A stretch of DNA of 64,000 nt from assembly GCA_963737655.1 (NCBI GenBank), contig CAVTTN010000002.1, positions 2,752,001 to 2,816,000 on the forward strand. The letters run 5' to 3'. The notes under the pieces are model-generated. The model made no database searches. It saw only the letters and a program-made list of their open reading frames with translations, and was not told the DNA's origin. The position numbers were made by a program, and so were the translations under genes. Positions 3,069 through 7,213 of this stretch are shown here, piece after piece; the stretch's first letter is position 1; each line of letters begins with the position of its first letter. The stretch comes from an uncultured Planctomycetota bacterium. Lineage in GTDB: Bacteria; Planctomycetota; Planctomycetia; Isosphaerales; Isosphaeraceae.

Positions 3069-3271
3069 CCCAACAACATCTCCACCCGCGGCGGCCTGCT
3101 GGGCCCACCGCGCCCCAGGTCAACCGGCCCGGCGGGCCGACGAATCGCCCCGCTTCCCGCCTCCGTCCCGGCCGAGCCGCGGGCAATGCAGGCGACCTCC
3201 CAGATTCAGGGATGACCGACCGGTCCCGTAGCCTCGATGGCCCCGGGCGCCCCTGCGAGAGAGCGATCCTC

Positions 3272-4777
3272 ATGAGCCACACCCGCATCCTGATCGTTCA
3301 TCCCGATCCGTCGGTCGCGTCGCTGATGACGTCCATGCTCCAAACGCTCGGGCACAAGATCGAGGAGGCGCCGAACGACCGGGCGGCGGTGCGGAGGCTG
3401 GAGCTCTCGACGATCGACCTGGTCCTGGCGGCGGCCGACCCCCGGGACCCGGAAGCCCTGGAGTTCCTCACCTATGTGAGGCGGAAGCATCCGGCGGTGC
3501 CCGTGATCCTCCTGTTCCCGGACTCCCACTCGGAGAGGACCCGGGAGGCGATGGCCCGAGGGGCGACGGCGATCCTCCGCTACCCCTTGCCGGCCAATTC
3601 GTTGAGGGCCGCGGTCGCCCAGGCGCTGGGCCAGCCCGAGCTGTCGGCCGTGAAGCCGCCGGCCTCGCCGGGCAACGGGGCATCGAGGACCAACGGCCAC
3701 GCCCTCCACGAGGCCTCGCGAGTCCCCCCGCCGCCCCGGGTCGAGGTGGCCCCGCCGCCCTTCGAGTCGTCGCCTCCCGCGCCGGATTCGGCCCGGCCCG
3801 AGGAGCCGATGGGCAAGGACCCGGCGTTCCGCCAGGCGGTCGAGCTGGCCGGAGCCATCGCCTCGACGGCCGCACCCATCCTGCTTTGCGGCGAACGAGG
3901 CACCGGCAAGACCCGGCTCGCCCACTGGATTCACCGTCGGGGACGCCCCGCCGACGCGCCGATCGTCGAGGTCTCGTGCGGACCGGCCCGGGACTCGGTC
4001 CTGGAAGTCGAGCTGTTCGGCCGGATCGGGACCGGCCCGGACGACCCCGACCGCCCCGGCCTGATCGAGCGAGCCCGAGGCGGGACGCTCGTCCTGGACG
4101 AGGTTTCCGCCCTCTCCCTGCCGCTCCAGGGCCGGCTGCTCCGGCTCCTCCGCGACGGCGAATTCGAGCCGATCGGCTCGGCCTCGCCCGAGAAGGCGGC
4201 CGTCCGAATCGTCCTGACGACCCGGGAAGACCTCTCGGGCCCTCTGGCCGAAGGCCGGTTCCGGGCGGACCTCTACTCGCAGATGGCCGTCGTCGCGCTG
4301 AAGCTCCCCCCGTTGAGGCTCCGCGGCGGAGACATCGAGACGCTCGCCGAGGCGTTCCGGGAGCGGTTCGCCTTCTCGCTTCGGAAGGACATCTCGGGCT
4401 TCGCCCCGGAGGCCCTGGACCGGCTTCGGGCCCACCTCTGGCCGGGAAACATCCAGGAGCTGGAGCAGGCGATCGAGAGGGCCGTGGTCGTCGCCCGGGG
4501 CACCCGGATCGAGGCCAATCACCTGCCGCTGGTCGCCCGCGAAGCCCCGGCCTCCCGGCCCCCCGCCCGGGGGCGCAAGTCCCAGGCCAGCCTCGGCATC
4601 CTCCCCCTGAAGGAAGCCCTGGAAGTCCCCGAGAAACACCTGATCCTCCAGGCCCTCGAAGCCCTCGAGTGGAACCGCCAGGAGACGGCTCGGGTCCTGG
4701 ACATCAACCGCACCACCCTCTACAAGAAAATGAAGAAGTACGGGCTGCTTTTTGATGAGCCCGTCTGGGCAAATTGA
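3272..4777 (+). CDS. Atypical NtrC/Fis-family regulator (pseudo-receiver + AAA+ + Fis HTH)
   Basis: Receiver-like N-terminus, Pro-rich linker, Walker A GERGTGKT, Walker B LVLDEV, WPGNIQEL, C-terminal HTH NRQETARVLDINRTTLYKKMKKY. Confidence 0.9.
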   Translation: MSHTRILIVHPDPSVASLMTSMLQTLGHKIEEAPNDRAAVRRLELSTIDLVLAAADPRDPEALEFLTYVRRKHPAVPVILLFPDSHSERTREAMARGATAILRYPLPANSLRAAVAQALGQPELSAVKPPASPGNGASRTNGHALHEASRVPPPPRVEVAPPPFESSPPAPDSARPEEPMGKDPAFRQAVELAGAIASTAAPILLCGERGTGKTRLAHWIHRRGRPADAPIVEVSCGPARDSVLEVELFGRIGTGPDDPDRPGLIERARGGTLVLDEVSALSLPLQGRLLRLLRDGEFEPIGSASPEKAAVRIVLTTREDLSGPLAEGRFRADLYSQMAVVALKLPPLRLRGGDIETLAEAFRERFAFSLRKDISGFAPEALDRLRAHLWPGNIQELEQAIERAVVVARGTRIEANHLPLVAREAPASRPPARGRKSQASLGILPLKEALEVPEKHLILQALEALEWNRQETARVLDINRTTLYKKMKKYGLLFDEPVWAN

Positions 4778-5050
4778 TCTCAGACGGGCGACGACGGCGA
4801 CGAGGTCGCCATGGATTCCGAGGGTCGCGGTTCGGGGTGCCCCGGTTTTCGAGCCGGCGAGGCGGAGACGCAAGGGCCCGTCGTTCGGGCGCAGGCTCCG
4901 GCGTTTCGGCCTCCTCCCTCCGCGCGAGTTCGCCATCCGAACCGGGAGAACCGAGCTCTCGCTCGGACCCGAATTCCCGGAATCCGGGGCGACAGCAGTG
5001 GCGCCCGTTGTGAAAGGGCCAATCAGTCGTTGAAGAGGGAGGGCTTCACT

Positions 5051-5083
5051 CCCTCTCCCCGGCCCTCGGGGGAGAGGGTAAGC
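5051..5083. repeat. Short GC-rich hairpin repeat (CCCTCTCCCC...GGAGAGGGTAAGC); related copy at 9982-10014
   Basis: Inverted repeat ccctctcccc / ggggagaggg; both copies end in agggtaagc. Confidence 0.45.
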
Positions 5084-5327
5084 TCGGCTTTCATGGGAAG
5101 AACGGATCGGCCCGGGTGTAGCTCTGGAATCTGGATCGTCCAAAGGGTGCCCCCGGTTCTTGAACCGGGGGCACCCGAAAAAACTCCAGATTCGGGAGCT
5201 ACACCCGATCGGCCCTTCGTTGTGACGGGCCATTGCCCCAGAGTCCGTGATCCGGTAGACTGGGACCCTTCGCCCCGGACGATCCCCTGTTCCGCGGCCT
5301 CGTCTCCCGAGCCTCCCGAGGTGCCCT

Positions 5328-5450
5328 GTGTCGTACCGCCCGCGGAAGAAGAGTTCCCACAAGCAGAAGTTCGGCATCTGCAAGAGGTGCGGGGGCCGGA
5401 TTCGCCGCCACATCGCGCGTTGCAAGAAGTGCTCGGAGAAGACGTCCTGA
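5328..5450 (+). CDS. 40-aa basic C4 zinc-finger microprotein (MSYRPRKKSSHKQKFGICKRCGGRIRRHIARCKKCSEKTS)
   Basis: GAGGT Shine-Dalgarno 5 nt before a GTG start; CxxC-x10-CxxC; GC-rich third codon positions; below the ORF-track size cutoff. Confidence 0.7.
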   Translation: MSYRPRKKSSHKQKFGICKRCGGRIRRHIARCKKCSEKTS

Positions 5451-5498
5451 GCCGAGCCGCGATCGGATCGCCTCCGACGCCGAGGGCGAGGCCGACGC

Positions 5499-6428
5499 CT
5501 AGGATTCGGCCTTTCCGAGGGTCGTGACGGTCGTTGTCGTCCCCGAGGCCCCGAGCGTCGTGACCTCGGAGACGACCTCGCCGCCGTCCGGGTCGATGTG
5601 GAACCTCTCGGTGTGGGTCGGCCGGAGGATGTCCGTCAGGGGCACCTTTTCCTCGCCGTTGACCGCGAAATTCCCCGAGTCCACGACCGGGTCGGTCGCG
5701 TCGCGCCTCCGGCTGGTGAAGGTGGTGCCCCGGATGTCGTCGGCCGTGCTGGCGGCCAGGGCGATGGCCCGATGCAGGCTGTAATCGTCCCGCGATTGGC
5801 CCGACTCGAGGAATTGCCGGATCGCCGGGTCCTTCTCCTTGAGCATCGCCAGGAGCTCGGGCGAGTCCATGTCGATCAGGGAGAAATCCCGGGTCACGAC
5901 GGTGTGGATGCGGTCGATCGTCAGGAGCGAATAATCGCGGGCATCGACGCCGTAGGGCACGAGGCTGAAGACCTTGCTCGGGGAGAACGGCTCCGCTTCC
6001 AGGGCGGCGCGTTGGTCGGGCGTGACGCCGTCCATCATCGCCTTGATCCGCCTTTGGAAGTCCCCCTTCATCGTGTAGTAGTAGTTCTCGGCGAGCTGGC
6101 CGGTCTTCCGGGCGAGGTAGATCGAGGTATTGCCGGGGGTGCCGTCGGCCTTCATCCCGCTGGCGCGGTTGGAATCGAGCCTGGTCGAGTCGGGCCGCGG
6201 GGTGATGGCGCCCAGGGCCGTCGATCCATGGATCCTGGGGATGCCCCGGACCATCATCGTCCCGGCGGGGACGTCGATCCGGGCCGAGGCCGGCAGGCCG
6301 TCGCGATCCAGGATCTCCAGGGCCTTCCAGTAGATCCCCGGGCTGTGGATGGTCTTGCTGGCGATCGTCGAGGTCGAGCTCCCGAGGCTCGCCCCGACCC
6401 GCGAGAGGAAGATCGGTAGTCGCGACAT
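5499..6428 (-). CDS. Hypothetical protein with RES-domain-like motifs
   Basis: VRG ... NRASG ... SIYLA....LAE ... DDYSLHRAIA ... GTTFTSRR ... GNFAV follow the order of the RES R, E, Y, SxR, N pattern. Confidence 0.6.
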   Translation of the reverse strand: MSRLPIFLSRVGASLGSSTSTIASKTIHSPGIYWKALEILDRDGLPASARIDVPAGTMMVRGIPRIHGSTALGAITPRPDSTRLDSNRASGMKADGTPGNTSIYLARKTGQLAENYYYTMKGDFQRRIKAMMDGVTPDQRAALEAEPFSPSKVFSLVPYGVDARDYSLLTIDRIHTVVTRDFSLIDMDSPELLAMLKEKDPAIRQFLESGQSRDDYSLHRAIALAASTADDIRGTTFTSRRRDATDPVVDSGNFAVNGEEKVPLTDILRPTHTERFHIDPDGGEVVSEVTTLGASGTTTTVTTLGKAES

Positions 6429-6589: not shown

Positions 6590-6913
6590 TCAGTCCGTCG
6601 GCCGAGGCCCGGGGGTCACGCCCGAGGCCGCCGCCCGGCCGAGGACGCGGACCGTCAAATCCGTCTCGACTCGGACCTGGCACGACAGCCGAATATCCGG
6701 CCCCAGGCTGGCTTCCCGGGCGAGCCTCTCGCGCTCCAGCTCGCCCATCGGCTCCAGCTCGCCGGAAACCAGCTGGACGCGGCAGGTCGTACACTTGGCG
6801 TTCCCCCCGCAGCGATGGAGGATGTCGATCCCCGCATCCTCGATCGCCAGGACGAGCTTGGTCCCCTGGGTGACCTCGAACGACTTCTCCCCTTCAACCG
6901 TCACGGTAGGCAT
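6590..6913 (-). CDS. 2Fe-2S ferredoxin (adrenodoxin-like)
   Basis: CGGNAKCTTC...RLSCQ cluster-binding motif; start MPTVTVEG. Confidence 0.9.
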   Translation of the reverse strand: MPTVTVEGEKSFEVTQGTKLVLAIEDAGIDILHRCGGNAKCTTCRVQLVSGELEPMGELERERLAREASLGPDIRLSCQVRVETDLTVRVLGRAAASGVTPGPRPTD

Positions 6914-6973: not shown

Positions 6974-7213
6974 CCGGGCAAGGTCCGTCCGGGAATTGGT
7001 GTCAGATCGTGCTTCGAAGAAAACCCGACTGAGGATGAGGTAACGAGTAGGTCCGACTTCAGTCGGGCCTACGAAAAAAGGGATTTTAGGCCCGACTGAA
7101 GTCGGACCTACTTGTATCGATGATTCGAAGGATTTTTTACAAGGCATGTCAGATCATATTTCGGATTGCTCGAAGCACGATCCGACACCAATTCCCGGAC
7201 GGACCTTGCCCGG
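6974..7213. repeat. MITE-like element: 44-bp outer inverted repeats enclosing a REP doublet
   Basis: 6974-7017 is the reverse complement of 7170-7213 with one mismatch. Confidence 0.8.
7046..7112. repeat. GTAG-type REP doublet (REPIN-like), copy 1
   Basis: GTAGGTCCGACTTCAGTCGGGCCTA and its inverse, head to head; further copies at 48742 and 49826. Confidence 0.9.

Follow-up and report, generated by a model that had tools for sequence, protein, structure and literature searches.

Introduction

Small ribosomal proteins restricted to particular lineages, such as bTHX, bS22, bL37 and bL38, are short, basic and patchily distributed, often escape annotation, and are often encoded outside ribosomal operons. 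In archaea and eukaryotes, the site of bL34 is occupied by the C4 finger eL37. Zinc fingers of the RanBP2 type follow the consensus W-x-Cx2C-x3-N-x6-Cx2C. Archaeal eL40 (PF01020, PRK04136; structures 9znf_Ab, 9nri_Be, 9e6q_Ag and 2ayj) is basic and combines Cx2C-x10-Cx2C spacing with a short N-terminal helix; it binds the same cavity as bL36 (H42/H89/H91/H97) and is classed as ZNF265-like (PMC11354259).

The large-subunit protein bL34 also bears on the present locus. It was found missing from at most three of 995 genomes in a paper that also covers bTHX (PMC3353972). Further sources describe L34 as mostly buried and as lost in Planctomycetes (10.1101/2021.01.31.429008), put its presence at 0 for Planctomycetia and at 0.5 for Phycisphaerae (supplementary table of PMC10632474), and report a severe 70S defect in B. 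subtilis without it (10.1101/300103).

Here, we relate to these proteins a 40-residue microprotein encoded in a 64,000-nucleotide stretch of planctomycete DNA (hereafter, the window).

Gene structure and conservation

The first-pass annotation had proposed a free-standing gene with a GAGGT ribosome-binding site and a GTG start, encoding a Lys/Arg-rich protein with a CxxC-x10-CxxC pattern. Each of these particulars holds, as the frame translates exactly as claimed and has the following features.

5328..5450 (+): basic C4 zinc-finger protein gene, 40 aa, GTG start, TGA stop; based on translation and homologue conservation
5318..5323 (+): ribosome-binding site GAGGTG, 4 nt 5′ of the start; conserved in most of 27 same-family loci
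5233..5261 (+): candidate sigma70-like promoter, TTGCCC, 17 nt, TAGACT; agrees with the consensus at 8 of 12 positions
5337..5345 (+): Arg-Pro-Arg motif near the N-terminus (residues 4-6), from which a polybasic arm of 17 residues extends; a short helix is predicted at 8-12
5379..5432 (+): putative zinc knuckle, Cys18-x2-Cys21-x10-Cys32-x2-Cys35; Cys invariant in the family alignment

The product is 38% Lys+Arg and 3% Asp+Glu, and the Arg preceding Cys32 is near-invariant. The gene stands as its own unit in a source genome of 7.63 Mb, with a marker-based completeness of 87.7%: the only ORFs overlapping it are long shadow frames (3206-5425, reverse; 4811-5527, forward), it starts 550 nt past a sigma-54-type response regulator gene (3212-4777), and it is followed by a convergent gene (5499-6428), with no obvious co-transcription partner.

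Among same-family genomes, 26 of 36 match the microprotein at E ≤ 1.6e-5, one of these copies being frameshifted near its start, and one more genome holds a frameshifted copy. The frameshifted homologues noted at two loci each show a single frameshift and lie in low-completeness assemblies, pointing to either sequencing error or decay. The ribosome-binding site is well kept, its G, A, G, G, T and G at −10 to −5 being found in 25, 23, 23, 26, 23 and 21 of 27 loci, respectively. Across 25 ungapped same-family homologues, pN/pS, here uncorrected and with pS near saturation, is 0.36 in the microprotein frame, as compared with 1.35 and 1.12 in the other forward frames and 1.39, 1.33 and 0.54 in the reverse frames. 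Codon position 3 is twice as variable as positions 1 and 2. Judged by this comparison of homologues, the frame is a real gene, with its start, ribosome-binding site and reading frame under conservation. Several database entries nevertheless give it wrong upstream starts.

A promoter scan of the window region at a threshold of 9/12 found none, the candidate listed above scoring below it. Scores of 8 or more were reached by 30% of 80 homologue upstream regions and by 10% of mononucleotide shuffles, the best scores averaging 6.7 and 4.2, respectively. At the locus, neither a structured leader nor a terminator was found (fold z −0.3 and −0.7), and Rfam returned chance hairpins only.

Distribution and descent of the family

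The earlier suggestion that the protein might be lineage-specific, and the expectation of conserved homologues under selection, were both borne out. Using a family profile built from iterated alignments, with full-length matches counted at E ≤ 1.1e-8, we found the microprotein in 87 of 201 genomes of its class. In a sample of the phylum, the microprotein was found at full length in 9 of 14 same-class genomes and in none of 187 genomes of other classes, whose 16 best weak loci were zinc ribbons within longer frames. Four more class genomes fell below E 0.001 with partial matches only, at 2e-5 or worse. Absence was called on at most 36 scored candidates per genome, and scores were sharply bimodal. 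From the labels of named homologues we read the class as Planctomycetia: these are Isosphaeraceae, Thermoguttaceae, Pirellulaceae and Gemmataceae (seven taxon-named among 120 listed of 347), and further Planctomycetaceae or Planctomycetota among 80 records listed. Tautonia sociabilis and Planctomicrobium sp. SH527 are among the named carriers. Three metagenome-assembled records among those 80, two titled Ca. Kuenenia and one Chitinophaga, carry Planctomycetaceae-type copies, possibly through mislabelling or mis-binning, and count against strict class restriction.

Carriers make up 31 of 50 genomes in the microprotein's own family, 30 of 48 in family f4, 6 of 6 in f8, 6 of 24 in f3, 3 of 42 in f5 and none of 7 in f83. 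Losses also occur within genera (1 of 8 in genus g31, 2 of 5 in g20). There is one full-length copy in each of the 87 carriers, and one genome had two in the same-family search. The gene tree, built on 42 columns only, groups rows by family (7 changes vs 29 when shuffled), in keeping with vertical inheritance and recurrent loss. Identity between the own family and other families is 28-39%, as against 69-82% for bL33, represented by the best Pfam-scoring loci.

Full-length homologues are 38-50 aa long and share M-x-x-R-P-R and Cx2C-x9-12-Cx2C. In a set of 80, mean Lys+Arg is 38% and Asp+Glu 1.7%; the first Cys lies 17 residues past Met in 73 and 16-18 in all, and the Cys2-Cys3 spacer is 10 residues in 63, 9 in 10 and 12 in 7. 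Arg, Pro and Arg of the N-terminal motif are conserved in 78, 78 and 77 of these 80, respectively, the set having been collected by a pattern that required R-[PA]-[RK] and left out six deviating homologues.

In five non-carriers, a search for a Cys-free or divergent version with an N-terminal DNA pattern gave 68 matches vs 71 for the control; 30 of those loci were fetched, with no candidate among the in-frame ones. No remnant was seen beside the ferredoxin gene in five non-carrier genomes, nor beside DUF6800 in 20 loci. Fusions were considered and rejected: of 42 longer matches, 15 were read, each of which looked attributable to a wrong start, to read-through or to a chimeric end. A mobile origin was likewise discarded, as there was no plasmid match and the sole viral match proved to be a shadow frame within a long gene of a phage. 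A full-text literature search, largely confined to open-access papers, returned no description of the family, which is undescribed and mostly mis-annotated.

Predicted fold and relation to eL40 and bL36

For the query, no Pfam or NCBIfam model reached its cut-off, and members match many zinc ribbons weakly. Commonest among the Pfam matches of members are DZR (PF12773) and Zn_Ribbon_1 (PF13240), both below cut-off for the query; such generic ribbons are modules of longer proteins and, unlike the microprotein, have no fixed basic arm. The AlphaFold model (pLDDT 86, pTM 0.42) has a helix at residues 8-12 and strands at 15-17 and 24-26, and gave no Foldseek match at E ≤ 0.001. VIA-align tied RanBP2/NZF fingers (Z 3.8-3.9) with eL40 chains (Z 3.6-3.8), all of these Z scores being low (<4). 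Such a tie is expected, eL40 being classed as ZNF265-like (PMC11354259). As modelled, the fold is a RanBP2/eL40-type zinc finger. The knuckle superposes on RanBP2/NZF fingers with a core rmsd of about 1 Å over 26-29 residues; unlike them, the microprotein is stand-alone and bacterial, bears a long basic arm, shares only 11-27% identity with them, and, by its position frequencies, belongs to a family without the consensus Trp and Asn.

The likeness to eL40 that the first-pass annotation had pointed out stands at the level of the predicted fold, though no more strongly than for generic zinc ribbons. The microprotein shares with eL40 a basic character, a finger that is predicted to fold alike, a short N-terminal helix and 16-17 residues before the first Cys; the eL40 Cys spacing is found in the query and in 63 of 80 homologues. 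Residues 4-40 align onto 3-39 of archaeal 9znf_Ab (Z 3.8, rmsd 3.1, 27% identity). The family profile also finds archaeal eL40 as its best match among solved structures (E 5e-4), but over positions 11-36 only and at 22-23 bits, a score on a par with that of unrelated zinc ribbons within longer proteins (21-27 bits). In the ESM Atlas, an unnamed 72-member cluster, possibly the microprotein's own family, came first (0.94), followed by L40e clusters (0.90-0.91) with 153-155 shared features as compared with the 170 usual within a family; a second family member gave 0.89. JGI automatically labels 8 of 120 homologues listed as L40E and gives the others unrelated zinc-ribbon names.

The eL40 family models do not claim the microprotein. 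PF01020 has no match at the locus and falls outside the 25 most frequent Pfam matches of 57 members, and PRK04136 matches 9 of the 57, with a best E of 0.0036, below cut-off. The Asn that eL40 has four residues past Cys2 (in three alignments) is Val, Ile, Leu or Tyr in 79 of 80 homologues, and the tail past Cys4 is 4-7 residues long in 68 of 80, vs 15 in 9znf_Ab. Also unlike eL40, the microprotein carries a polybasic Arg-Pro-Arg arm and is patchy rather than universal. It is compatible with an eL40-type fold but is not a member of the eL40 family.

That it might take the place of bL36 is contradicted by the presence of bL36 in all 201 class genomes, every carrier included; the microprotein is therefore no stand-in for bL36, which in its own genome is 38 aa long (Lys+Arg 34%, Asp+Glu 3%). 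A stand-in role for bL32, bL33 or uS14 was rejected on the same grounds, bL33 being found in 199 of 201 class genomes and bL32 and uS14 in the own genome. The microprotein was also not found to be a C+/C− paralogue of bL33, bL32, bL36 or uS14, which have their own genes elsewhere, none matching the locus (weak uS14 likeness only, E 2.8). One non-carrier genome has a divergent stand-alone bL33 gene directly after its ferredoxin gene.

Loss of bL34

That bL34 has been lost across the whole class is a stronger lead from context, and one that went unseen in the first-pass annotation. Of the 187 genomes from other classes, 154 gave a bL34 match (139 above cut-off), as against four weak matches in the 201 class genomes, none of them credible: these were antisense to a restriction specificity gene, had internal stops, or lacked a start and were below cut-off. 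The possibility that the own genome hides a divergent bL34 was rejected, the best E with a planctomycete-trained profile being 0.45. At ten loci in other classes of the phylum, bL34 is divergent, with no rnpA-like gene evident just downstream. As the class has lost a buried protein, its large subunit would be expected to be remodelled.

This lack of bL34 suggests compensation by the microprotein. Both bL34 and eL37 are, like the microprotein, small and basic, and the microprotein never co-occurs with bL34, all 87 carriers being in the bL34-less class, a coincidence that represents one evolutionary event only. Against a simple exchange, 114 of the 201 class genomes have neither protein. Homology to bL34, or a bL34-finger chimera, was rejected on hhalign probabilities of 0.07 and 0.15 against ten planctomycete bL34 sequences; the GFRxRM helix-hairpin profile of bL34 was not matched, and the N-terminal profile reached 2.9 bits at best. 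Mimicry of eL37 was rejected as weaker than eL40 or RanBP2 by both sequence and fold: PF01907 has no match at the locus, eL37 chains gave E 1.1-2, and 7qca_LJJ, presumed to be eL37 from its LJJ label, scored Z 2.2 (rmsd 3.2), below the eL40 and RanBP2 rows.

Genomic neighborhood

Downstream of the microprotein gene lie two features on the opposite strand.

5499-6428 (−): ORF of 309 aa, assigned to no Pfam or NCBIfam family, between the microprotein and ferredoxin genes
6590..6913 (−): convergent 2Fe-2S ferredoxin gene (PF00111, E 1e-12), the usual downstream neighbor in the own family

Of 46 microprotein loci in the own family, 35 are followed by the ferredoxin gene, which also persists in 5 of 5 genomes lacking the microprotein; outside the own family it is not the neighbor. 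The 309-aa ORF is probably an insertion between genes that are adjacent in most relatives. Outside the own family, neighbors vary; in 110 loci rich in close kin, clustering placed DUF6800 beside 22, a RidA-type gene beside 11, BipA/TypA beside 8 (in each case 3′ of the microprotein) and a nucleoside phosphorylase beside 6. By pattern, DUF6800 lies 3′ of the microprotein on the same strand, at 29-212 nt, in 19 of 116 loci. A ribosomal-protein operon context was never seen among microprotein loci.

DUF6800 (PF20607; for example, locus L219:2621-2884) is itself small, basic, helical and class-specific. Outside families f1 and f6, 89 of 89 class genomes carry exactly one copy of it; none of the 32 genomes in those two families, the own genome among them, and none of 141 genomes outside the class has it. 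With this range, DUF6800 is a better fit than the microprotein for a core lineage-specific ribosomal protein, and a strong candidate for such a protein in the bL34-less class. Among the supplementary files of PMC10632474 that were searched, on P. limnophila, neither the microprotein motif nor DUF6800 was found.

Discussion

We tentatively favor the reading, with a rough probability of 45%, that the microprotein is a non-essential, lineage-specific RNA-binding protein bound to the ribosome, as an accessory subunit or an assembly helper. In line with this, its size and charge match those of small ribosomal proteins, including its own bL36; it is single-copy, with a family-wise tree and a strong conserved ribosome-binding site; its nearest matches (eL40, the L40e clusters, 9znf_Ab) are ribosomal or RNA-binding fingers; and it occurs in a class without bL34, at times adjoining DUF6800 or BipA/TypA. 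Against it, more than half of the class does without the microprotein while bL36 and bL33 are close to universal, it diverges much faster than bL33, its commonest neighbor is a convergent ferredoxin gene rather than a ribosomal-protein operon, its eL40 bit scores are shared by unrelated ribbons, and its fold Z scores stay below 4 and are equalled by RanBP2/NZF fingers that bind Ran or ubiquitin. The described lineage-specific proteins bTHX, bS22, bL37 and bL38 differ from the microprotein in that they were seen in ribosomes, and the microprotein differs from them in carrying a C4 finger.

Such an accessory protein would have arisen in or before the ancestor of Planctomycetia and then passed by vertical descent with many losses. 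Its knuckle, presumably zinc-bound, would rest on rRNA, and its basic arm of fixed length, with Arg-Pro-Arg, would reach into an rRNA crevice, at a site other than the eL40/bL36 cavity. The fixed distance of the first Cys from Met is what an arm that fits against an unchanging surface would be expected to show. Compensation for bL34 would be one version of this account.

It is possible, though rather unlikely, that the finger binds nucleic acid away from the ribosome, as a regulator or chaperone of mRNA, small RNA or tRNA, or on DNA in the condensed planctomycete nucleoid. The same charge and fold would serve it equally, the fold matches include RanBP2-type fingers in complex with single-stranded RNA (3g9y_A, 6g99), and the patchy range and fast divergence suit an accessory regulator. 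Yet the surroundings of the gene show no conserved partner gene or target motif, the RanBP2 Trp and Asn are absent, and the fixed N-terminal length with a near-invariant Arg-Pro-Arg suits one rigid site.

A bolder version of ribosome association, which we regard as doubtful, has Planctomycetia rebuilding the 50S subunit: having lost bL34, they would have recruited small basic proteins including the microprotein and DUF6800, with individual lineages keeping one, both or neither. The microprotein would then possibly be a shortened derivative of archaeal eL40, re-used at a new site beside bL36.

Somewhat less probable still is a role in binding proteins or handling metal, in the manner of ubiquitin- or Ran-binding NZF/RanBP2 fingers and possibly together with the neighboring ferredoxin. 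These fingers do hold the top VIA-align rows, and the ferredoxin is a frequent neighbor within the own family; however, the microprotein surface is almost purely Lys/Arg, and the ferredoxin gene is convergent, not co-transcribed, retained in non-carriers and confined as a neighbor to one family. That the microprotein is a true eL40 homologue in the eL40/bL36 cavity, for example swapping with bL36 under some conditions, appears very unlikely. Arguments for it are the same Cys spacing, an N-terminus of similar length, a structural register with archaeal eL40 that runs from end to end, the L40E auto-labels and the cavity shared by eL40 and bL36 (PMC11354259), but the ubiquity of bL36, the unsupportive family models, the missing Asn, the short tail and the other zinc-ribbon names given by JGI speak against it. 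A chance intergenic ORF or a shadow of another frame has next to no probability: the Cx2C-x10-Cx2C pattern does occur 32 times in the six frames of the main contig, but here start, ribosome-binding site, frame and stop are conserved across 87 genomes with unrelated flanks, under purifying selection.

The family marks one bacterial class. If the microprotein is ribosomal, it would show how free-living bacteria manage without bL34 and would place an eL40-type fold in a bacterial ribosome beside bL36; its gene and DUF6800 offer two concrete candidates for planctomycete ribosome structures. If it is a generic zinc finger only, its value would lie in a corrected annotation and a class marker.

Some further elements were observed near the gene and elsewhere in the genome. 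At 5105-5215, just upstream of the promoter candidate, lies a nested palindrome whose 23-nt arms flank a perfect hairpin of 15 bp (fold z −12); it is a REP/MITE-like repeat, for which blastn gave about 100 matches across the genome. A second nested palindrome, with 44-nt and 29-nt arms and about 200 blastn matches in the genome, is situated upstream of the ferredoxin gene at 6974-7213. Outside the window, the genome carries at C2:2929669-2929758 (+) a 29-aa ORF with a ribosome-binding site and 62% Lys+Arg, which may resemble bS22/mS38-type peptides.
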